A DNA stretch of 60,985 bases from a virus (Duplodnaviria; Caudoviricetes). The DNA is taken from positions 1-60,985 of IMG/VR virus record IMGVR_UViG_3300048996_000173; one strand, written 5' to 3'. A program made the translations under genes and the position numbers. Shown here in pieces: positions 971-48,707 of the stretch (positions are counted from its first letter, which is position 1; every line of letters begins with the position of its first letter). The notes under the pieces were generated by a model. The model made no database searches and was not told the origin of the DNA. It saw only the letters and a list, made by a program, of their open reading frames with translations.

Positions 971-1144
971 TCAGAACTTCCCGCTCTTGATCTGCAGCCA
1001 GTAGAGATCGTGCTTCTGGTTGCCCAGGATCCCCGTGCGGGTCGTCGACTTGCAGACGTACTGGGCGCCGCACCCGCCGCACTTCCACCGGCGGCCGAGC
1101 TTCTTCTTCACCAGGTAGGTCCGGCAGGTGTGACCGTCCTTCAC
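971..1144 (-). CDS. Small basic Cys-rich protein (57 aa), not in the ORF track
   Basis: GTGA overlap with the upstream stop. Translation MKDGHTCRTYLVKKKLGRRWKCGGCGAQYVC...SGKF with GC3-rich codons. Confidence 0.6.
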   Translation of the reverse strand: MKDGHTCRTYLVKKKLGRRWKCGGCGAQYVCKSTTRTGILGNQKHDLYWLQIKSGKF

Positions 1145-2280
1145 AGCCGGGCCGCCAGTCCGCGCGTTGCCCGGAGCTGCTCCTGGACGTACTTGAAGAC
1201 GACGTGCGCCGGGTCGGTGTGCCAGACCGGGGTCTTGGCGTTGTCGGCCCAGAAGCCCACCCAGGCGATGCCGGCAGACCGGAACAGGTCGGAGGAGTCC
1301 TTGTAGACCTTGAGCAGTCCAGCGGCATCGCTGCCCACCTGGTCGGCGCCGAACTCGACGACCGCGCTGCGCAGCCCGAAGTCCTGCTTGATGGCCTCGG
1401 CACGCTGGAGGAACCCGCCGAGCACGTTGGCCGCGGTCTCATAGCCAGTCGAGCTCAGCCACGCCTCGTTGTAGATGTCCTCGGAGTAGTAGTGGATCGC
1501 CGAGGAGATCGGGTCGAGGTAGGTCTTGTAGTTGAAGCCGGCGTGCTCGATCTGGTAGTGGTTGAAGTTGGCCACCAGTCGGATCTTGTCCTTGTTCGGC
1601 GACTCGTCGTACGCCTGGTGGACGGTGTTCCACTGGGCAGTCCAGGCGGCGACCGACATGTCGGCCGGCTTGATCTCGTGGTTGAAGATGAACATGAACA
1701 GCGCGTAGTCGCGGACCCGGGGATGGTCGAACAGCGCCTTCATCTCGGCCAGGCTGACCGAGCCCTTCTTGCTGCACAGGATCGCGTCACCCTTGCGCTG
1801 CGCGGCGAAGGCGGCCGCAGTCGGGCTGAGCGTCCAGCTCAGCGTCTGCCCCGGCGAGGCGAAGACTCCGCGGGCGATGTTGAACGCCGGCGCCGGGGCG
1901 GCCGCGTCGGCGAAGAGGGCCTGCTTGGCTGCAGCGTCGGCCGCCCAGTTGCTCCCCGGCGCCGGGGAGGCGTCCAGGCTGAAGATCGTCGGAGGCGGAG
2001 TGTCGTCCTGCTCACCCTCGAGTTCGGCGATGCGAGCCTGCAGTTGATCCACCTCTTCGCCGAGCTCGTCGATGGTGGCATTGCGCTCCTGGATCGCCGC
2101 CAGGTCGGTGGCATGCTGAGCCTGGAGTCCTTGGTTCTGCTGGACCAGCTGGTCGCGGTACGTCGTCAGGGCGACGACCTGCGCCTGCAGCGGGGACGTC
2201 GCGTCAGCGATCGCCTTGGTGACGTAGTCCTGGACCAGCATGTCGTACGCGGTCCGGAGGTTGAGTCCGTGGTCTGCCAT
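1141..2280 (-). CDS. N-terminal coiled coil plus GH26-like (clan GH-A) glycoside hydrolase
   Basis: Heptad-rich N-terminus. FNHE (acid/base), EDIYN and VVEFG (nucleophile) motifs. Start at MADHGL, 6 nt after TACGCT. Confidence 0.6.
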   Translation of the reverse strand: MADHGLNLRTAYDMLVQDYVTKAIADATSPLQAQVVALTTYRDQLVQQNQGLQAQHATDLAAIQERNATIDELGEEVDQLQARIAELEGEQDDTPPPTIFSLDASPAPGSNWAADAAAKQALFADAAAPAPAFNIARGVFASPGQTLSWTLSPTAAAFAAQRKGDAILCSKKGSVSLAEMKALFDHPRVRDYALFMFIFNHEIKPADMSVAAWTAQWNTVHQAYDESPNKDKIRLVANFNHYQIEHAGFNYKTYLDPISSAIHYYSEDIYNEAWLSSTGYETAANVLGGFLQRAEAIKQDFGLRSAVVEFGADQVGSDAAGLLKVYKDSSDLFRSAGIAWVGFWADNAKTPVWHTDPAHVVFKYVQEQLRATRGLAARL

Positions 2281-2344: not shown

Positions 2345-2725
2345 TCAGGCGACCCGGCGGAGCTGGACGCTGGTGAACGCCTCGTTGTGGAGGCCCGGGT
2401 TCTCCGCAGCCTCGGTGGTCTGGCGCAGGAAGCCGGCCAGGGCGAGCTGCAGGGCCGAGATGATGGCCGCCTGGAGAGCGACGTCGATGTCCGCGCCGAA
2501 GCCGACCAGCAGCGCCAGGACGGCCTGGGCCGCGCCGACGACAACCGCCGTCTGGACCTTCTTGGTGTAGATGGCGGTGACCAGAGCGAACGCTGCGCCG
2601 GCGGCCGCCTGGATCAGGGTGGACCGGACGTCGTCCAGGCCGAACGTGCCGAGGACGACCAGGACGCCGAGGACGCCCTGGAGAACGCCGGCAAACGCGG
2701 CCGGCTCGTAACCGAAGATCTTCAC
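2345..2725 (-). CDS. Holin
   Basis: Four hydrophobic segments, a KIFGYEPA start typical of actinophage holins, and position downstream of the endolysin. Confidence 0.7.
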   Translation of the reverse strand: MKIFGYEPAAFAGVLQGVLGVLVVLGTFGLDDVRSTLIQAAAGAAFALVTAIYTKKVQTAVVVGAAQAVLALLVGFGADIDVALQAAIISALQLALAGFLRQTTEAAENPGLHNEAFTSVQLRRVA

Positions 2726-2734
2726 GTGATGCTC

Positions 2735-3382
2735 CTACTCGGTGATGAGGTTGAAGTCGTTGAGCCGGAAGGTCCGCTCCGCGCCGGCGGTGTTCGCGAT
2801 CTCGACGCCGTACTCGACGGCCGAGACCTTGTCGCTCCCCTTCAGCCAGCCCTTGCCGACCAGCCAATCCAGGACCGCGAGTACATCCAGGCGACCGACG
2901 GGGGTGGGCTTCTCCATCGCCAGGGCGATGTATGACCCACCGACGTGCGATTGGCGCCGCCAGGCAGTGAAGGCGTGCCCATCGATCGTGACCTTGTCGG
3001 ACTCCGCGGCGTTGCGGGGCGGGATGACGCCGTTGTAGCGCTCGTGCGTCCAGATCATGACCTCGGCGGTCGAGCGACTGCCGAACCCGTTGACCCAGAT
3101 GTCGAACGCCCAGTCCCACTCACCGACCGTAAGCTGGTTGGCATCCCAGCTCGCCCGGATCTTGCTGAGCGAGTCGATCGTGCGGTCGAGGTTCTTCTGC
3201 GTGCACGGGTACGACTTGATCGAGCCCGCTGGGACGTCCGCGCGCGAGTGATTCCCGACGACATCCCAGCGGCCCGGCCCCCAGGCGAACATCGTCTGCG
3301 AGCCGGCCTCCTTCTGGTTGTGGACGTTGTTGTTGACGAGGAACCCGTCAACCGACCACTGGGAGAGCGGCTCGCTCAGGCT
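2735..3382 (-). CDS. GH12 (endo-beta-1,4-glucanase-like) domain, probably reached by -1 frameshift from the endolysin (alternative ATG at 3292)
   Basis: Motifs FLVNNNVHN, KSYP, AFDIW, EVMIW (nucleophile) and YGVE (acid/base). The N-terminal NN motif lies upstream of the first ATG. Confidence 0.75.
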   Translation of the reverse strand, partial: SLSEPLSQWSVDGFLVNNNVHNQKEAGSQTMFAWGPGRWDVVGNHSRADVPAGSIKSYPCTQKNLDRTIDSLSKIRASWDANQLTVGEWDWAFDIWVNGFGSRSTAEVMIWTHERYNGVIPPRNAAESDKVTIDGHAFTAWRRQSHVGGSYIALAMEKPTPVGRLDVLAVLDWLVGKGWLKGSDKVSAVEYGVEIANTAGAERTFRLNDFNLITE

Positions 3383-4347
3383 TTTGGGGCCGGGACCGGC
3401 ACGTCCTCGTCGGGCGCAAGCAGGTCCAGCTTCGCCTGCGCGGTCTTCAGGGCGGCCTCGAGTCGGGTGACGGCGTCCTGGGTCTGGGCCCAGCGCGCGC
3501 CAGTCAGCTTGTCGAGGTTGTCGTCCTCGGCCTCGTTCTCGACGACGAGCTTGGTCAGGTCGGCGATCGCGGCCAGCGCGGCGCGGTTCTGCGCACGAGC
3601 CTCCTCGACCTCCTGGGCCCAGCGGCCACTGGCGATTTCGTGGAGGGCGTCGAGCTTGCCGCCCAGGACGGTGATGACGCGGTCTGCTTCAGCCACGGTG
3701 AGTTCTCCTTCAGGGTGTTGGGTGGCGGGCGGCGGGGTGCCACCGTTGACTGCCTTGATCATGGCGTCGACGTCGCGCCGAGCCTTGTCCATCGCGGTCT
3801 TGCCCGGGTCGTCCTTGCGGCGAGTGTGCTCCCGGTGACCGATGACGCTTCCGCCGGTCCAGCCGTAGAAGTCGCAGACCGCCGCGGTGGCCCGGACTGC
3901 GGTGTCGTAGGCCTTGGCGGTCATCGGCTGACCACCGTCGTACTTGACCTCGAATCCGAAGTACTGAGCGTTGCCGTCCAGCACGTCGGAACCGGGGTTG
4001 ATCTCGCCGGTTCGCGGCGCCTTGTCGGCTCTGACGAGAGTGAGGGCGGCCTGGGCGCCCTTGCCGGCGTGGTTCGCCCGGCCGGTCGTGCCCAGGATGA
4101 AGTCGCCGTCCATCTCGATCGTGGCCTGGCACAGCGCGCCGGGAATGCCTTCACTCTCCCGGCCGTCCCAGAACAGGAAGCGGTCGTACGACGTCGAGTT
4201 CTGGCCGCCGTCGCTGCCGGTGTGGTGCCACACGACGCCGACGGGGGAGAAGGCGCCCGGACGCGAACGGCCCGGGTACTTCTTCATGGTCACGCCGAAC
4301 TTGCGCAGCTGGCTTTGCCACTGCGCCTCGGTCATCGGTACGGCCAC
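3376..4347 (-). CDS. Endolysin, N-acetylmuramoyl-L-alanine amidase
   Basis: Amidase_2 motifs VWHHTG, RANHAG, GFEV, IGHRE and KDDPG. AAGGAG ribosome-binding site (RBS) before the GTG. Confidence 0.9.
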   Translation of the reverse strand: MAVPMTEAQWQSQLRKFGVTMKKYPGRSRPGAFSPVGVVWHHTGSDGGQNSTSYDRFLFWDGRESEGIPGALCQATIEMDGDFILGTTGRANHAGKGAQAALTLVRADKAPRTGEINPGSDVLDGNAQYFGFEVKYDGGQPMTAKAYDTAVRATAAVCDFYGWTGGSVIGHREHTRRKDDPGKTAMDKARRDVDAMIKAVNGGTPPPATQHPEGELTVAEADRVITVLGGKLDALHEIASGRWAQEVEEARAQNRAALAAIADLTKLVVENEAEDDNLDKLTGARWAQTQDAVTRLEAALKTAQAKLDLLAPDEDVPVPAPKA

Positions 4348-4414
4348 GGAGGACTCCTTCTGGTGGCGGACAGGTGGGATCAACCTCCAGCCTAACTCGG
4401 CCGCGGAGGAAAAA

Positions 4415-4774
4415 CTAGACAGATGGGGGGCTGGGATCGAGGAGATCCTTCAGCGGCGGCGGCTTCGGAAGGTTGATCCCCTGAGCCGTCAGCGCCTCGT
4501 ACGCCTGCTGGTCCCAGTAGGCGTGGACGGCGATGATGGTGTCCTGCCGGCTGAGGTGACGCTGAGTCATCTCGTCACGCTGGATGAGCATTGCCTCGCG
4601 GGCCAGGATGCGCTGGTTCTCGGACTCCAGGCGCTCGACGACGCCGGACGCTGCCTTGGCAATGACCTCAGTGGCCTCGGCCGACAGCTTCCGCTTGTTG
4701 AACAGACCGGTAACCAGGGCCGTGAGGATCATCCCGATACCGAGGGCTCCGAGGAGCTGAAGGGCTGCGTTCAC
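4415..4774 (-). CDS. Membrane-anchored coiled-coil protein of the lysis cassette
   Basis: N-terminal transmembrane (TM) segment, helical middle and Pro-rich end. Confidence 0.65.
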   Translation of the reverse strand: MNAALQLLGALGIGMILTALVTGLFNKRKLSAEATEVIAKAASGVVERLESENQRILAREAMLIQRDEMTQRHLSRQDTIIAVHAYWDQQAYEALTAQGINLPKPPPLKDLLDPSPPSV

Positions 4775-10614: not shown

Positions 10615-11517
10615 TCAGAGCGCCGCGTGGGCGCCGTAGGTCTTGATGGTGGCTGTACCCGTCATGGTACCGGACAGTGCGCGGAAGCCAAAGCTCTGGT
10701 TGCCGGGCAGGACGAACAGGTTGCGCATCCGGACCCGGGGGTTGATGTAGCCGGCCACGCTCAGGCCGTCCTGGTTGACGATCGACCGTCGCCAGGGGCG
10801 GGTGTCGATCTCGACCCAGTCGCCCTCGGCGATCGTGGCGTTGAGCTTCAGGGTCCATGCGGGAGTGTAGATCTCCGGGTCGATGGCCTCACCGGTGATG
10901 CGGATGATCGGCCAGCTCGGCCGGCTGCCGGGGATGTGGACCTCGCCCTCGTTGTTGCCGGAAGGCAGGCTCGTGGTCGGGTAGGTGATCGGGTAGGTGA
11001 TGCCACCCTCGGACTCGGCCACCAGGTCCAGCGTCGCGACCTCGGGCACGTCGTCGTAGAACAGCGGGTCGACGCGTTGGAAGTCGCAGGTGATCGGGAT
11101 CATGCCCGACAGGACCCGGTTGTCCATCGAGTTGGCCCAGCGGCGCGGGCGGCCGTAGACCCTTCGCGTCCGTCCGGCGACCTTGTAGCGGATCACCGCC
11201 ACCTCGTCGGCGACGGTCGAGACGCCAGGGCCCGTCCAGGCGGTCGCCAGGGCACTCAGGGCGGCGAAGGCGTCCTCCTCCGACTGCTGGTTCACGAAGA
11301 GAGACCAGGTGAAGTTGGAGCCCTTGCGGACGTCGCGGCCCATCATCGTCGCACCGGTGGCCGGGTTGTCGACGTCCTGGGTGAGCCACTCGGCCACGCC
11401 CGGGTCGAAGCCGTCCGCGGTGCAGTGGATGGCGCGGCCGATCCCGAACGCCGTACCGGTGTCGAACTCCTCGGTCTGGAGGAGTTCGAACTGGTGGTCC
11501 TCGAGCAGCGTCGTCAC
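10615..11517 (-). CDS. Distal tail (Dit-like) protein
   Basis: Directly after the tape measure gene. Motifs VYGRPRR, DPLFY, WPIIRITG and IDTRPW. Confidence 0.8.
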   Translation of the reverse strand: MTTLLEDHQFELLQTEEFDTGTAFGIGRAIHCTADGFDPGVAEWLTQDVDNPATGATMMGRDVRKGSNFTWSLFVNQQSEEDAFAALSALATAWTGPGVSTVADEVAVIRYKVAGRTRRVYGRPRRWANSMDNRVLSGMIPITCDFQRVDPLFYDDVPEVATLDLVAESEGGITYPITYPTTSLPSGNNEGEVHIPGSRPSWPIIRITGEAIDPEIYTPAWTLKLNATIAEGDWVEIDTRPWRRSIVNQDGLSVAGYINPRVRMRNLFVLPGNQSFGFRALSGTMTGTATIKTYGAHAAL

Positions 11518-14500
11518 TTGAACACCCCGTCGTCGATCCGCTTCCAGGTGAAGGCCAGGTCGTCAGCGACATCGCCGGCCGTGAGGTCGGACTGGTTGAA
11601 CGTCGGCGCGTAGGTGAATCCGTCACCCTTGCTGCCGGCGCCCATGCTGGAGAACTGGTCCTCGGTGAAGACCGGCTCGGGCCTGCCCGTGAGGTTGACC
11701 ACTCGGGTGATGCCCGGGGGCAGGTACCCACCGTTGTCGTACATCATCGTGCCGTTGTCGGGCACGGTGCCACCGTCAGAGTACCAGCCGTGGTCCTCGC
11801 GGAAGTTCAGCGCCCCCTGCGGGTCGCCGTACCGGTCCTTGATGTACTGCAGGCCGTACTGGGCCTGCAGCTGCGGGTCGCTGGTCTTCTTGCCGTACGG
11901 GCCCCAGGTGCCGTTGAGGAACTGGAAGAGGCCGTACGCCGTGCTCGACGGGTTCTGTGCGTTCGGGTCCCAGCCGGATTCGGCCTGGACGATCTTGGCG
12001 AGGGCCGACCACTGGTTGCCCTCCCAGCCGAACATGGTCTTCGCCATCGTGGCGACCATTTCCTTCAGGCCGCCGGCGATCGGGGTCCAGCTCTCCTCGC
12101 TCTGGCCCGGCAGGAATCCGGTGATCATCTGGCCCATGCCGGTGATGATCGCCTCGGGGATCGCCTTCAGGGTCTTGGTGAGGGTGTTGTCGCCCCAGTC
12201 CTCGGTGAGCTTGCCCAGCTTGTCGCTGATCTTGCCGCGCAGCCAGTCGACCGGGTTGCTGATGGCGTCGCTGACCCAGCCGACGATGCCGCTCAGGCCG
12301 CCCTTGATCTTCTCGAGCAGGCTCGGGTCCTTCTTGACGTTCGGGCCGTCGTCCTTGCCGCCCAGGCCATCGCCGCCGGCGTAGTAGTCGGCGACCTGTC
12401 GCTTCGCGGCGTCGGACGCGGTCGGGTCACCCGCGGCGATGCCGTGGATGTGCGGGTTCCAAGGGCCCTGGCTCGAGTTGCGGTGCCAGGCAGCGAAGCC
12501 GACGGTGCGCAGCGCGAAGACGAGAGCTTGGCCGAGCAGGCCGCCGGGCCAGCCGGCGTCGAAGGCGCCACCGCCGGCGTGCGTCGATCCGGACGCGGCC
12601 ACCGAGGTGGAGTAGGAGCCCTGGGTGATGCGGAGGGTCTGCTGCGACAGCCGCTCGGCCGCCTGCAGCATCCGGATCGTGCGGTAGTTGAACCGCTTGC
12701 CGCGCCAGGTGGTCTTGTCGAACTCGCCGACCGAGCTGGCCGGCACGACGCCACCCTCGTAGTAGCCGCCGAGGTAGTTGGCGACACCCTGCGTCCCCTG
12801 CAGCTTGGCGCGCTTGTTGATGGCGTTGACCCACCCCGGGCCGAGTACGCGGGTCGCCTCCGGGCGGAGGATAGCCTCGCCTCCACCGACCGCGATGAGC
12901 TGGTTGTCTCGGCCCGGGGTGTAGCCGAATCGGACGCCGTAGTTCTTGTCCGGGATACCGCCGTTGGCGAAGCCCGCCGGCGGCCACGGGATCGGTTCGA
13001 CCGGCTTCAGGCCGGGCAGGTGGTTAGCCAGTCCGTTGAAGCCGGCGATCAGACCCTTGTTGATGATCGTGTCGACCATGAACGTGACGGGCGCCTTCAG
13101 GGTGTTTCCGAGGCCCTCCCAGATGGTCTTGATGAGGCTGATGGCGGAGCGGAACGCCCCGACCAGGCCGCCGCCCTTCTCCTTGCCGGCATCGTCGACA
13201 CCGAGCTTGTCAGCGATCGTGTCGAAGACCGGCTTGAGGATGGTCTCCCAGCCGAGCTTGATCAGCTTCCAGGTGTCGTCGAAGAGCTTGCCAACAGCGC
13301 GCAGGACCGGGCCAACAGTGAGGTTCCACAGCTGCCACAGGATCCGGCCGAGCACATCCAGGACCGGCCAGATCACGTTCTCCCAGACCCACTTGATGTC
13401 GCCGCCCATCTCGGAGAACAGGTCCTTGATGTCGGTCAGGACGGGCTTGGCCGTATCCTCCCAGAAGGCCTGGAGGTTCTCGGTGGCCCAGTCGAGGAAC
13501 GGGCTCAGCACCTCATCCCAGAACCAGACGAGAGCAGTCTGGAGATCGGAGAGCACGCCGATCACGAGACCCATGTTCCAGGCCCAGAGCTGGAAGGCGT
13601 GGACGATGATCCACTCGACGACCGGCCAGACGTCCTGGACGAGCTTAGCAAAATCTTCGTTCGTCTTGTAGAGGTAGACCAGCGCAGCGACCAGGGCGAG
13701 CGCGATGAGGACCCAGGCGCCGATGGGGCTGAAGATCACGGAGACGAGCGCGATGATGCCGGACAGTGCCTGGAAGGCGCCGATCAGCGTCAGGATCGCG
13801 CCGATTACGGTAGCGATGGTCTTGGGGTCCAGCCCGGCGATCCAGTTGAGGATGTCGGTGAGGACCTTCAGGATGTCCGGGCCGAACATCGCGAGCGCCT
13901 CGACCACGGCGAGCAGGGCGAGGGCGAGGGCCTTGAAGAAGTCGCGGACGGTGGGAGCGACCTCGACCAGGTAGGCGAAGAAGTCCTGGATCAGCTTCTG
14001 CCCCTCCTTCGAGCGCGTCCACTCGAGGACTCGCTTGGAGATGTCGAGCAGCGCCTCCGAGACGAGCAGGGCGAATGGGGCGGCCGCGACCGCCAGGTTG
14101 GCGAAGGCGGACAGCCAGTTGATGAAGGCCTCACCGAACTGCTTGGTGATGATCGGGGCGATGTCCCCGACCATCTTGAAGAACGCCTTCCACTCCTTGT
14201 TCGTGAAGACCGCGGCGGCCTGCTTCGCCAGCTCGCCGAGCAGCTTCGCCATCTCGCCAGCGAACTTGATGAAGTCCTCGCCGTAGGTGTCGATCAGGGT
14301 CTGCAGGGCGTCCTGGAGGCCGGGCAGGAAGCCCTCCTGGATGACGGCGCGCAGACGCTCGAAGTCGTCGGCCAGGCCGTGGATGAAGAGCGCGAAGGCC
14401 TGGCCAGCGGGGGACAGCTTACCCATCGCGTCAGCGAGCTTCTGGGCGGACGCCGAGCCGAGTTCGTTCGTCTCGACCAGGGCGTCCTTGTAGTCCAGCT

Positions 14501-16412
14501 GGGCCTGGGTCAGGCGCCGCTGGGCATCCTCGAGCGCCTCGCTGTTGTCCTGCTGGGCCCGCTTCTGGGCCTTGATGGCGTCGGCGACCGAACGCGCACC
14601 GTCGATGCGAGCCTGGTTCAGCTCGCGCTCAGCGTCGACCAGGCCACGCTGGGCCTCCTGCTGAGCCTCGAGCGCGGAGGTGACGCGGTCCTGAGCGTTC
14701 TTGACCTTGTCGGAGTCGTTGACCCCCTTCTTGCGCTGGTCGGCGAGCTCCTTCTCTTCCTTTCGGATGTCCTCGAGACGCAGCTTCGCGTTCTCCAGGT
14801 TGATCGACGCCTGCTCCTTCTCGAAGTTGGTCGCCCCCGGGTCGCGCTGGGCGGCGTCGTTCTCGACGGTTGCGGTGAAGAGGTCAAGCACGCCCTGGCG
14901 CTCGTCGAGCCGGTTCCGCTTCTGCTTGGCTGCGATCTCATCGAGCTCCTTCTGAGCGTCGATGCGCGCCTGGGTCAGGTCCTTTTGAGCCTGGGCGGCG
15001 TCCTCGTTGGCCTTGGAGAGCCGGCGCTCGGCGTCCTCCTGACGGCGCAGCGCGCTCTCGATCGAGCGAGCAGCCTGCTCCTTGGCGTCGACGACAGCCT
15101 GCTCGGCGTCGGCGGCACGCTGAGCAACGTCCTCCCGAGTGCGGGCCAGGGCGCGCTCGGCGTCCTCGACCTGCTCCGCGGCGTTGCGCATCCGCTTGGC
15201 GGCCGCCTGGGAGTCCTTGGCGGCGTTCTTCTGCTGGTCACCCAGCGCCGTGACGGCGTCGCCGATACCGGAGAAGCCGATGAGCATCACGCCGAGCGCG
15301 GCTCCGAGGCCCAGGGCCGCTACGGCGGCACCGAGCAGACCGCCGGAGATCAGAGCGAGGATTGGAACCAGGCCGGCGCCCGTGGCGGATACGGCCAGGG
15401 CTGCTCCATTGAAGAAGCGGAACGAGTTGGCGGTGTCGCGGCCATCCAGCGACAGGCGCTGGAACGCCCGGCCGAGCAGGCTGAGGTCCTTCTCGGTCTT
15501 GCGCGCGTTGTCGGCGTCGACCTTGATTCGGGCGCGCTTACCGTCCAGCTTCTCGCGCGCTCGGTCGGCGGACTCGATGGCGAGCAGGGCCGCGGTAGCG
15601 TCGGCGTTCACCTGAATGTCGATGGTGGTGGCGGCGAGGCGAGCCAGCTCGATCTCGATCGAGCGGATCTCCTTCTCCGCCTCCTTCGCGGTGACGTCGA
15701 TGCCGATCTTCTTCAGGTTGAGCGACTGTAGCCGGGCCTGGACTTCCTGGAGGTTCCGGTTCACGCTGTCGCCGATGGCGTCGCCCGCCTTGTTCAGGCG
15801 GTTCTTCAGCTGCTGCTCGAACGCGCCCAGCTTCCGCTCGGCCGGCTTGGTGTCGACGTCGACCTTCGCGGTGTGGTCCAGCTTCTGGATCTGGCGCTCA
15901 AGGCGCTCCAGGCCGGCGGTGGCCGCCGTGGCGTCCAGGCCGACGCGGAAGTCCTGGTCGCGCATGGTGCGCTTCAGGAAGACGGCAACCTCGGCGGCGC
16001 GACGCTCGATCTCCGAGGTGTCCATGCCGGGCTTGATCTGGATCTTCGACAGAGCCTTCGCCTCGGCCTTATAGTGCTCGAAGAGGCTGGCCAGCTCGCG
16101 GTCATCCGTGCGCAGCTGGATCGGGTCCAGCTCCTTGCTCAGCGACTTCAGTGAGTTGCCGAGCTCGGTGCGGAACTTTCCGGCATACTTCTTGCCGGCT
16201 TCCTCACCAGCCCGCTCTGCGCCTTCGCCCAGTTCGGCTCCGAGGATCTTGCCGGCCTTGGCGGCCGCGGACTTGGCGCCCTTCTGGACGCCGTCGTCGA
16301 TCTCCTTCTCGAGCGCCCGGCCGAGCCCCTTGGCCATGCGCGAGTTAGCATCCTGCACACCGTCGTACGAAACCTGCACCTGGAGGAAAACGGTGCCAGC
16401 TGAGTACGGCAC
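11514..16412 (-). CDS. Tape measure protein with C-terminal peptidase-like and lytic transglycosylase domains
   Basis: 1632 aa with long helical repeats and a W/F periodic region. Motifs STHAGGGAFD...HIHG and ESGWDPNAQNPSSTAYGLFQF. Confidence 0.92.
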   Translation of the reverse strand: MPYSAGTVFLQVQVSYDGVQDANSRMAKGLGRALEKEIDDGVQKGAKSAAAKAGKILGAELGEGAERAGEEAGKKYAGKFRTELGNSLKSLSKELDPIQLRTDDRELASLFEHYKAEAKALSKIQIKPGMDTSEIERRAAEVAVFLKRTMRDQDFRVGLDATAATAGLERLERQIQKLDHTAKVDVDTKPAERKLGAFEQQLKNRLNKAGDAIGDSVNRNLQEVQARLQSLNLKKIGIDVTAKEAEKEIRSIEIELARLAATTIDIQVNADATAALLAIESADRAREKLDGKRARIKVDADNARKTEKDLSLLGRAFQRLSLDGRDTANSFRFFNGAALAVSATGAGLVPILALISGGLLGAAVAALGLGAALGVMLIGFSGIGDAVTALGDQQKNAAKDSQAAAKRMRNAAEQVEDAERALARTREDVAQRAADAEQAVVDAKEQAARSIESALRRQEDAERRLSKANEDAAQAQKDLTQARIDAQKELDEIAAKQKRNRLDERQGVLDLFTATVENDAAQRDPGATNFEKEQASINLENAKLRLEDIRKEEKELADQRKKGVNDSDKVKNAQDRVTSALEAQQEAQRGLVDAERELNQARIDGARSVADAIKAQKRAQQDNSEALEDAQRRLTQAQLDYKDALVETNELGSASAQKLADAMGKLSPAGQAFALFIHGLADDFERLRAVIQEGFLPGLQDALQTLIDTYGEDFIKFAGEMAKLLGELAKQAAAVFTNKEWKAFFKMVGDIAPIITKQFGEAFINWLSAFANLAVAAAPFALLVSEALLDISKRVLEWTRSKEGQKLIQDFFAYLVEVAPTVRDFFKALALALLAVVEALAMFGPDILKVLTDILNWIAGLDPKTIATVIGAILTLIGAFQALSGIIALVSVIFSPIGAWVLIALALVAALVYLYKTNEDFAKLVQDVWPVVEWIIVHAFQLWAWNMGLVIGVLSDLQTALVWFWDEVLSPFLDWATENLQAFWEDTAKPVLTDIKDLFSEMGGDIKWVWENVIWPVLDVLGRILWQLWNLTVGPVLRAVGKLFDDTWKLIKLGWETILKPVFDTIADKLGVDDAGKEKGGGLVGAFRSAISLIKTIWEGLGNTLKAPVTFMVDTIINKGLIAGFNGLANHLPGLKPVEPIPWPPAGFANGGIPDKNYGVRFGYTPGRDNQLIAVGGGEAILRPEATRVLGPGWVNAINKRAKLQGTQGVANYLGGYYEGGVVPASSVGEFDKTTWRGKRFNYRTIRMLQAAERLSQQTLRITQGSYSTSVAASGSTHAGGGAFDAGWPGGLLGQALVFALRTVGFAAWHRNSSQGPWNPHIHGIAAGDPTASDAAKRQVADYYAGGDGLGGKDDGPNVKKDPSLLEKIKGGLSGIVGWVSDAISNPVDWLRGKISDKLGKLTEDWGDNTLTKTLKAIPEAIITGMGQMITGFLPGQSEESWTPIAGGLKEMVATMAKTMFGWEGNQWSALAKIVQAESGWDPNAQNPSSTAYGLFQFLNGTWGPYGKKTSDPQLQAQYGLQYIKDRYGDPQGALNFREDHGWYSDGGTVPDNGTMMYDNGGYLPPGITRVVNLTGRPEPVFTEDQFSSMGAGSKGDGFTYAPTFNQSDLTAGDVADDLAFTWKRIDDGVFK

Positions 16413-16459: not shown

Positions 16460-17179
16460 TCAGTCGGCTCTGGAGCGCCGGTTCCGCAACATCCGGGCGG
16501 CCAGCGCCTCGTGCTTGCGCCACTTCATCCGCTCCATGGCCTTGCTCAGCTCGGACTTCGGCCGGGCATCCATCTTCGGCTTCTCGACGCCCGTGGCACC
16601 GTTCGTGGCGGCGATCCGGTACGAGATGATCTTCAGCTGGTCGAGCACGTCGGTGAGCTTGGCGAGCTCGGGCGACCAGGTGTACCACGGCGGTGAGGCG
16701 TCGGTCTCCTGCTCCGGGTGCTGCGCGCGATGCTCGGCAATGCGGGCGGCGTGCTCGGGGTCCTTGGCCAGCGCGTTCTGGTAGTGGGTGTTCTGGGGCA
16801 GGTGATCGATCAGGTTGAGGAGGGCCCGCCACTTCCGCGCGCGCCACATGTCGGCCGGTCCGATCCCGGGATACCAGCGAGGGAAGTCGGCCTCGAGCTG
16901 ATCTGAGTAGCGGTCCATCGCGTGCGCAAGCCGGCGGGTCTGAGCCTCATCCGGAGTCAGGCCGTAATGGGCCACCCAGGCCGCGCGGAGCAGGTCCGCT
17001 TGAGCGAGGGACATTGCACCGAGCTGGGCGGAGTTGATGAAGGCCTTGACGTCGGAGACGCAGGCCGCCACGCGACGCCAGTTCATCTGCGCTGGGTCCA
17101 GAGACACGACGACCCGCTGGCCACTCAGGGAGGCGACCAGCGGGCCGGTGCGCTCTCGATCTAGATCGTCGAGAGCCAT
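16460..17179 (-). CDS. Tail assembly chaperone, GT-like
   Basis: Directly before the tape measure gene. LEADF...LLNLIDHLP...W(S/T)PE pattern. Confidence 0.75.
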   Translation of the reverse strand: MALDDLDRERTGPLVASLSGQRVVVSLDPAQMNWRRVAACVSDVKAFINSAQLGAMSLAQADLLRAAWVAHYGLTPDEAQTRRLAHAMDRYSDQLEADFPRWYPGIGPADMWRARKWRALLNLIDHLPQNTHYQNALAKDPEHAARIAEHRAQHPEQETDASPPWYTWSPELAKLTDVLDQLKIISYRIAATNGATGVEKPKMDARPKSELSKAMERMKWRKHEALAARMLRNRRSRAD

Positions 17180-17183
17180 GTCG

Positions 17184-17546
17184 TCAGATCGGCAGGCTCT
17201 TGCGGCCGCCGATCTCCGGCATGCCGAAGTGCTTGCCGATCTTCTGGACGAGGACGCCCATCAGCTCGATCGCGATCGGGTTCTCCCGCAGGAAGATCTT
17301 GTCGTCCTCGTCCGGGATGATGTGCCTGAGAATCTCGATGTTGTCCTCGAGCGTCGCCAGGATGCGCCAGTCCACCAGGTTCGGGTCGGTGACCCGGATC
17401 CGCTGGGTGACGTCCTGCTTTACGCCGTCGACCTCGACCTTGCCCTTGCGGACGAAGTAGAAGTCGCGACGCTTCGGCAGGTTGGACTGCTCGACATCCA
17501 GGTCGACATCGACCACAGAGTCGAAGTTCACGACGTTGTCGGTCAC
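17184..17546 (-). CDS. Tail assembly chaperone, G-like
   Basis: Size and position. AAGGAG RBS. Confidence 0.7.
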   Translation of the reverse strand: MTDNVVNFDSVVDVDLDVEQSNLPKRRDFYFVRKGKVEVDGVKQDVTQRIRVTDPNLVDWRILATLEDNIEILRHIIPDEDDKIFLRENPIAIELMGVLVQKIGKHFGMPEIGGRKSLPI

Positions 17547-48601: not shown

Positions 48602-48672
48602 ATCGGTGCAGCATGGCGGAGAGCGGTCACCCGCGGAGGGTGGCCACGCGGGTTCGAGTCCCGTCACCGATG
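48602..48672 (+). tRNA. tRNA-like element with non-canonical anticodon arm
   Basis: ATCGGTG/CACCGAT acceptor, GCGGG-TTCGAGT-CCCGT T-arm, and an 8-bp arm with a GCGGA loop. Confidence 0.5.
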
Positions 48673-48707
48673 CGAAGTTCGGCGGCTTAGTCCGTCGGGC
48701 CTTAAAT

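Follow-up and report, generated by a model that had tools for sequence, protein, structure and literature searches.

Candidate programmed -1 frameshifting at a conserved joint between a soil actinophage endolysin and a GH12 domain

Results

The endolysin gene of a soil actinophage ends in a slippery heptamer, and a long -1 frame stays open past its stop codon. The stretch of DNA analysed here (the window) is a virus contig of 60,985 bp (IMG/VR record IMGVR_UViG_3300048996_000173) from a metagenome assembly, rated complete, and is an uncultured 61-kb soil actinophage. We examined the endolysin gene of its lysis cassette and the reading frame that crosses the end of that gene (Table 1). The 323-amino-acid (aa) open reading frame (ORF) contains an Amidase_2 domain (Pfam PF01510, 8.9e-15) and matches the endolysin family phrog_880 (1.2e-33), and a holin gene adjoins it in the cassette. 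On the minus strand, the amidase gene ends ...GTG CCG GTC CCG GCC CCA AAA GCC TGA, which bears out the claim of an earlier note on this sequence that the heptamer C-CCA-AAA lies in phase at 3388-3382. Across the junction the -1 frame reads ...GPGPKSLSEPLSQWSVDGFLVNNNVHN... and remains open until the stop at 2737-2735, an open stretch of 317 aa. As the same note had stated, the frame (...PKSLSEPLSQWSVDGFLVNNNVHN...) has no ATG, GTG or TTG before 3292. No canonical start overlaps or closely follows the amidase stop in the window; there is only CTG 3379, and the first canonical start lies 87 nt further on. A product that changed frame at the heptamer would have 322 aa through the lysine plus 215 aa from the -1 frame, and the arithmetic agrees with the 323-aa and 537-aa lengths given before.

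The heptamer uses rare codons and marks a change of coding frame. CCA accounts for 5.5% of proline codons and AAA for 2.1-2.4% of lysine codons in the window, in agreement with the earlier description of both as rare. The presence of CCCAAAA is by itself uninformative, because its count in the window is close to chance (2, versus 1.8 expected); it is its position, and its conservation elsewhere, that exceed chance. Four ORFs of the window have an in-phase XXXYYYZ heptamer within their last 20 codons, and only at the amidase is there a long -1 extension. Over 3381-3292, the -1 frame has a G+C content at third codon positions (GC3) of 0.97. On the 5' side of the heptamer the value for the -1 frame is 0.34-0.41, and it is the amidase frame that is high (0.93-0.97), so that coding passes from one frame to the other at the heptamer.

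The amidase is predicted to carry a long stalk that leads to the slip site. The AlphaFold model (alignment A9; predicted local distance difference test score, pLDDT, 84.3) has a domain at residues 1-202, a disordered link, helices at 218-239 and 242-310, and a disordered proline-rich tail that reaches the slip site. The closest relative among the clusters combines an amidase (P0045, 85% identity) with a GH12 protein (P0004, 68%). The holin of the window (MKIFGYEPAA...) also follows the cassettes of two other loci that have the same joint, L023 and L024 (Table 2).

Table 1. Features of the endolysin gene, its -1 extension and the adjoining holin gene in the window
Feature	Position	Strand	Basis or remark
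Endolysin ORF, 0 frame, 323 aa	3376..4347	-	GTG 4347 to TGA 3378-3376; ORF, Pfam and PHROG
Shine-Dalgarno (SD)-like GAAGGAG, 6 nt 5' of GTG 4347	4354..4360	-	sequence read
Amidase_2 catalytic domain, residues 36-183	3799..4242	-	Pfam; compact fold over residues 1-202 in the model
Helical stalk, residues 218-310, with one 69-residue helix; then disordered Pro-rich tail 311-323	3418..3696	-	AlphaFold
Internal SD-like GAGGA 5' of the heptamer	3404..3408	-	spacing exceeds the 10 nt of L001, L002 and L008; role conjectural
Slippery heptamer C_CCA_AAA, in phase with the amidase frame (X_XXY_YYZ)	3382..3388	-	sequence; identical in 8/8 related junctions
0-frame stop TGA, one codon (GCC) past the heptamer	3376..3378	-	same spacing in 8/8 loci
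CTG that overlaps the stop (CTGA), possible site of non-canonical re-initiation in the rival reading	3377..3379	-	aligns with the GTG start of heptamer-less relatives
-1 frame extension, 215 codons (S-L-S-E-P-L-S-Q-W...), complete GH12 domain	2738..3382	-	fold, homology, GC3
First ATG/GTG/TTG of the -1 frame, ATG	3290..3292	-	a start here removes strands 6-10 and 13-17
Glu of EVMIW (E106), putative GH12 nucleophile	3062..3064	-	invariant in alignment A1; aligns with EIMLW of 6sdu
Glu of YGVE (E193), putative GH12 acid/base	2801..2803	-	invariant in alignment A1; aligns with YGVEI of 6sdu
-1 frame stop TAG	2735..2737	-	sequence
Holin gene, directly 3'	2345..2725	-	phrog_9752, 3.2e-15; closes the lysis cassette

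The -1 extension is a complete GH12 domain. Pfam gave no match for the 214-aa GH12 part even at E<=10, so that the family model PF01670 is not reached, and PHROGs gave none; for this reason we turned to sequence and fold searches against the PDB. With phmmer, the best PDB sequence was the GH12 domain of the xyloglucanase NopAA (6sdu; E=1.8e-16, query residues 4-211), followed by five further distinct GH12 sequences (six entries listed) at 3e-11 to 1.5e-8. An AlphaFold model built on an alignment of 22 homologues had a pLDDT of 95.6, and Foldseek aligned it to 6sdu with a template modelling score (TM) of 0.85; most of the other matches listed are also GH12, with top TM values of 0.79-0.86. Both glutamate motifs are invariant across the 22 aligned homologues and align to 7mks as well, and the 25 invariant columns of that alignment are intact in the window. 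We take the glutamates of the E-x-M-x-W and G-x-E motifs to have the catalytic roles usual in GH12. The GH12 domain with both glutamates that the earlier note had read from the sequence was thus recovered, by PDB sequence and by fold and not by Pfam.

The beginning of the domain is encoded upstream of the first possible canonical start, as had been suggested. In the model, strands at residues 6-10 and 13-17 precede Met30 (ATG 3292). The 30 start-less codons are conserved in homologues, contain the NNN motif of the fold, and line up with S-S-E-x-L-G-Q-W, the motif at the N-terminal boundary of the domain in in-frame fusions. Of the 38 GH12 homologue clusters, 10 of which have a precomputed PF01670 label, 21 have a gene call that begins within the domain, 10 are stand-alone proteins of full length and 7 are in-frame fusions. 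SLT_3-GH12 is found in frame in six clusters (P0006, P0009, P0011 and P0015-P0017) and GH19-GH12 in three further clusters (P0041-P0043). These fusions indicate that GH12 as a C-terminal module behind a wall hydrolase is a natural architecture.

Chromosomal GH12 genes of Kribbella (L003-L006) are 45-47% identical to the phage domain and have an in-frame Pro/Thr-rich linker upstream; L015-L018 correspond to these four records at the same positions, with open frames of 417-468 aa. Judging from this similarity, the phage GH12 module likely came from such a host gene.

The joint is identical in diverged loci and is followed by a lytic domain in the -1 frame. We collected related loci through GH12, amidase or SLT_3 searches, none of which used the heptamer. 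The heptamer and frame offset, which the earlier note had proposed to look for in related phages, were kept in 8/8 diverged loci: the 9-nt joint C_CCA_AAA_GC is followed in each by one base and a stop, and the next lytic domain lies in the -1 frame (Table 2). The sequences on both sides differ widely. The amidases of L001 and L002 are 44% and 21% identical to that of the window, and the upstream gene is a window-type Amidase_2, a second Amidase_2/endolysin type (L002, phrog_1493) or an unclassified ORF (L007); in L007 the joint sits upstream of an SLT_3-GH12 pair.

Table 2. Junction codons and downstream domains at the eight loci with the joint
Locus	Junction	Downstream domain in the -1 frame
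Window	GCC CCA AAA GCC TGA	GH12
L001	CTC CCA AAA GCT TAG	GH12
L002 (Kribbella sp. isolate genome; prophage locus)	CCC CCA AAA GCC TGA	GH12
L008	CCC CCA AAA GCG TGA	GH12
L007	CTC CCA AAA GCG TAA	SLT_3-GH12
L023, L024	GCC CCA AAA GCC TGA	SLT_3 (Pfam PF18896)
L062	CAC CCA AAA GCC TGA	SLT_3 (74% tblastn identity to L023)

Codon choice at the joint is unlikely to have arisen by chance. The residue before the proline varies (A, L, P, P, L, A, A, H), and the third base of its codon is always C. Given the amino acids and the codon usage of the window, the probability of C at that position is 0.0016 over 7 loci, and that of CCA together with AAA is 0.0011 per locus. The -1 frame has a stop two codons before the lysine codon in L062 and five codons before it in L002; in these two loci, therefore, a productive shift is possible only at the heptamer. 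In L024 the -1 frame lacks ATG, GTG and TTG between 3184 and a point 200 nt beyond the stop. A [CG]TG overlapping the TGA stop was present in 6/8 loci, versus 4.7 expected by chance.

The heptamer and a second lytic domain occur together. We surveyed amidase-related loci on viral contigs regardless of the joint: 38 in a first scan, and in a second scan L093, L095 and L096, with L062 found again as L094. The heptamer was present in 4/42 of these viral loci (L023, L024, L033, which is the contig of L001, and L062/L094), and these are exactly the 4/42 with GH12 or SLT_3 in the -1 frame. Within the first scan, 3/38 loci end in PKA with the heptamer, and GH12 or SLT_3 was nearby only in those three. 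The three loci added later have neither heptamer nor lytic partner. Among them, L095 serves as a control: its amidase ends HPKP, encoded with common codons (CAC CCG AAG CCA), and no lytic partner follows. Among the 120 amidase cluster representatives listed, 43, about a third, have a PKA C-terminus after otherwise variable tails, which fits a joint used on the scale of the family.

Other collections were searched as well. Against annotated phage records, the amidase found only LysM-type lysins of Streptomyces and Gordonia phages at <40% identity. Searches (tblastn) of the same records with the GH12 domain and the SLT_3 extension of L023 gave no match, so that no cultured phage in that collection has this arrangement. 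A single-protein scan of viral contigs gave no match. An order-level search of 401 genomes returned 9 matches at E<=1e-40, including the prophage locus L002; the length of the remaining open frames (321-468 aa) suggests that these are multi-domain genes. The family-level amidase search of genomes returned mostly chromosomal orthologues.

SLT_3-type junctions are followed by strong RNA hairpins. In L023, L024 and L062, a 31-bp hairpin begins 2-7 nt past the heptamer (-41 to -47 kcal/mol; z = -4.3 to -5.0; 0/200 shuffles as stable; 3 compensatory pairs), and L007 has an 8-bp hairpin 8 nt past the heptamer (z = -3.7). On the other side of the heptamer, GAGG or AAGG lies 10 nt upstream in L001, L002, L008 and L062, and the window, L007, L023 and L024 have neither at that distance; as a stimulator of frameshifting it is suggestive only.

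Discussion

We believe that one message of this phage is read in two ways. Based on the joint in 8/8 loci, its perfect co-occurrence with a second lytic domain and the GC3 switch, which together support the core proposal of the earlier note, we put the probability at about three in four that -1 frameshifting at C_CCA_AAA gives both a 323-aa amidase and a 537-aa amidase-GH12 protein. Most ribosomes would end at the amidase stop and make the short endolysin, which consists of the Amidase_2 domain, the long helical stalk and the proline-rich tail. A minority, holding CCA in the P site and AAA in the A site, would slip back by one base; their tRNAs would re-pair on C_CCA_AAA as CCC-AAA, and translation would then continue through AGC CTG AGC... 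for 215 codons. The long product would carry, on the same stalk, a complete GH12 beta-glycanase domain with its catalytic residues intact. The joint NNC CCA AAA GCN-stop would then act as a portable recoding cassette, used with at least two types of upstream hydrolase and with GH12, SLT_3 or SLT_3-GH12 downstream. Making two forms might fix the ratio of the two activities, or allow mixed oligomers to form through the stalk.

Several observations weigh against frameshifting. A P-site tRNA that moves from CCA to CCC pairs imperfectly at the wobble position. The eight loci are not fully independent: the SLT_3 extension of L023 shares 74% identity with that of L062 and 67-69% with that of L024. 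The PKA count of the amidase clusters (43 of the 120 listed) holds at the protein level only. L079 is a chromosomal amidase gene of genome G072, which belongs to the family of the Kribbella genome G001. The gene closes with TEPKA, the EPKA part being GAG CCA AAA GCC TAA, and no lytic domain follows; this may be a relic of the phage joint. No in-frame amidase-GH12 or amidase-SLT_3 protein was found among the 120 amidase relatives listed or the 3 longer GH12 matches. The RNA of the GH12-type loci (window, L001, L002 and L008) has no significant structure past the heptamer (40-50-nt folds; z = -0.44, -0.41, -1.17 and +0.65) and no conserved structure (consensus fold -5.85 kcal/mol). The small GAGCG/CGCTC hairpin described before is present in the window, but the minimum-energy fold does not use it; in the 40 nt past the heptamer it is neither significant (the z of -0.44 above) nor conserved. 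Comparable hairpins are found at heptamer-less loci (z = -3.0, -4.0, -2.3, -0.9 and -3.0), and because these loci fold too, part of the structure at the SLT_3-type junctions may stem from coding AGFTDPA.

Further opposing observations come from relatives that lack the heptamer. In L065-L067, SLT_3 lies in the -1 frame behind a GTGA start/stop overlap; L065 and L067 belong to the same amidase family as the window, and L066 presumably does too. L064 has only CTGA, and in L068 an ATG overlaps the stop with SLT_3 in the -1 frame. CTG 3379 of the window aligns with the GTG of such relatives. These junctions imply that a two-gene arrangement is workable without the joint, and coupled separate translation is a working alternative in this gene family that may coexist with frameshifting.

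Two of these junctions have features of their own. At L064 (2480-2500), SLT_3 lies in the -1 frame of an ORF that has no Pfam or PHROG match, in a frame without ATG, GTG or TTG. At L068 (2496-2512), the amidase ends GAG GGA AAC TGA TG, placing a different classical heptamer, G_GGA_AAC, right before the stop, which could be coincidence or an independent second slip site.

Re-initiation is the live rival, since heptamer-less relatives use GTGA or ATG overlaps. Under this explanation, ribosomes would re-initiate at CTG 3379 (CTGA) as the sole route to GH12 and make a free protein of ~214 aa, a second lysis enzyme; the conserved CCCAAAAGC would then serve another role, or frameshifting would be a minor side route. 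Such a free GH12 would have a cassette position comparable to that of LysB in mycobacteriophages. The GTGA, CTGA and ATG overlaps at the same junction and the alignment of the window CTG with the GTG of relatives all speak for it, as do the GTGA of L008, the GTG two codons past the stop in L001 and the ATG seven codons on in L007. The 10 of 38 GH12 homologue calls that stand alone with a full N-terminus, and the lack of in-frame amidase-GH12 among the relatives listed, fit it as well. However, re-initiation leaves unexplained the rare CCA and AAA, the NNC that precedes them and the fixed one-codon distance to the stop in 8/8 loci. The start it would use is not fixed in place; it overlaps the stop in six loci and lies two codons past it in L001 and seven in L007. 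Moreover, [CG]TG overlaps the stop no more often than chance would predict, L024 has no ATG, GTG or TTG near the junction in the -1 frame, and the 31-bp hairpin starts at or beside the CTG in L023, L024 and L062. CTG is also a rare initiator. On balance, we consider re-initiation as the sole route unlikely.

Two further explanations are much less probable. Gene callers place the start of GH12 at ATG 3292, giving a 185-aa ORF; this is the sole canonical start in the frame and the database call P0003 matches it. Translation from there alone would remove two beta-strands and the NNN motif, and the 30 upstream codons, which homologues conserve, have a -1-frame GC3 of 0.97; this makes this explanation very improbable. 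More improbable still is an artefact or decay, in which an assembly indel in the run of four A splits one ORF, or GH12 is a pseudogene without a start. Indels do tend to arise in homopolymer runs and the window comes from a metagenome assembly, but the same frame offset and joint are present in 8 loci from different assemblies, including the isolate genome of L002. A second assembly, from a run that is possibly the source and may contain the same reads, matches 3194-4105 without differences, and the intact catalytic residues and 25 invariant columns speak against a pseudogene. A relative with ~87% identity is present in another soil run. We set aside transcriptional slippage, for which a run of four A is too short, and likewise a protein-level role for PKA, as the rare proline and lysine codons are used only where a -1 lytic domain follows.

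Frameshifting at the amidase joint resembles known systems and differs from each. Programmed frameshifting in tailed phages is textbook knowledge for tail chaperones. As in the lambda-like G/GT pair, the slip would occur at -1 a few codons before a stop and give a major short and a minor extended product, and strong downstream structure is often absent there, as it is in the window. Whereas G and GT are chaperones of virion assembly, the protein here is a lysis enzyme, the extension is a catalytic glycosidase, and the joint is common to different enzyme pairs. E. coli dnaX also shifts by -1 at a slip site with lysine codons, with an SD-like sequence ~10 nt upstream and a hairpin downstream; GAGG or AAGG 10 nt upstream in L001, L002, L008 and L062 and the strong hairpin of the SLT_3-type loci are like it. 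It differs in that the shifted dnaX product is the shorter one, and in the window the SD-like sequence is farther away and the hairpin is not significant. The CCCAAAA heptamer itself is reportedly a -1 slip site in phage structural genes, as in Lactobacillus phage A2, a precedent that the earlier note had named.

Other lysins also make two polypeptides from one locus, or carry GH12 in another way. Ms6 LysA, Lys170 and CD27L/CTP1L each give two polypeptides with a common module; unlike here, they do so by internal initiation, and the extra product is a shorter fragment or a binding domain and not an added catalytic domain. The in-frame SLT_3-GH12 and GH19-GH12 proteins have GH12 of the same subfamily (48-62% identity), in the same C-terminal position and with the same boundary motif, but every molecule carries GH12, with no short form and no joint between the domains. 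NopAA (6sdu) and Rhodothermus Cel12A (1h0b) share the GH12 fold (TM 0.83-0.85) and both glutamate motifs align; they differ from the phage domain in sequence (identity <=26%), in that the phage domain has no Pfam match, and in the phage lysis-cassette setting of the latter.

Two lysis enzymes from one message through a frameshift would probably be a new use of a known mechanism. The nearest cited item, from Shearman in 1994, is said to concern a lactococcal lysin and "two overlapping genes". A passage in PMC10885494, citing Shearman 1994, puts lysins among genes "known to contain a frameshift". GeneMarkS predicted frameshifts in genes near the endolysins of Streptomyces cluster BI phages (PMC9671017); these cases likewise lie in the lysis region of actinophages, and the passages that report them name no slip site, conservation or lysin extension. 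The earlier note knew of no frameshift-controlled lysin of this type, and in the literature covered (including passages of PMC13313380 and PMC10732093) we found no description of a frameshift-built endolysin or of a GH12 lysis enzyme.

If frameshifting is confirmed, endolysins would be added to the proteins whose composition depends on recoding, and GH12 glycanases would become lysis factors. The latter would imply that the envelope of Kribbella-like actinomycetes contains a beta-glycan barrier which phages have to cut. Gene callers would be systematically truncating or orphaning the second lytic domain, as in the 21 of 38 GH12 calls that start inside it, and the rule "...PKA-stop encoded as CCA AAA GCN" could find hidden bifunctional lysins in metagenomes. 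The modular joint is also a possible natural template for engineering lysins with two forms.

A wider proposal can be offered as a tentative possibility. The joint might be a portable cassette throughout a family of soil actinophages, with slip efficiency fixing the ratio of amidase to bifunctional enzyme (GH12, SLT_3 or SLT_3-GH12). Short and long forms might co-assemble through the 69-residue helix as a hetero-oligomeric lysin, in which the GH12 arm cuts a non-peptidoglycan beta-glycan of the filamentous host.

Additional observations

Genes on both sides of the amidase and holin have features of their own. Just 5' of the amidase, a membrane-protein gene (4415-4774, minus strand; phrog_9635/9090) carries CCCCCCA in phase, two codons short of the stop, with a -1 extension of only 7 codons. 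The 379-aa ORF just after the holin (1144-2280, minus strand) may encode an additional protein of the lysis cassette. Its N-terminus is probably a coiled coil, with a weak match to FliJ that falls short of the curated threshold, and searches of Pfam, PHROGs and PDB sequences gave nothing for the C-terminal ~250 aa.

The other CCCAAAA of the window is at 36-42 on the plus strand. The sole tRNA gene of the phage, tRNA-Pro(CGG) (48602-48673, plus strand), reads the common CCG and not the CCA of the slip site. Upstream (5') of a 1632-aa ORF that resembles a tape measure gene (11514-16412, minus strand) are a 120-aa chaperone-like ORF (17546-17184) and a 239-aa ORF (ATG 17179). This pair (16460-17546, minus strand) is related by a frame of +1 (or -2) with a 4-nt gap, not by the usual -1 overlap, and contains no CCCAAAA.

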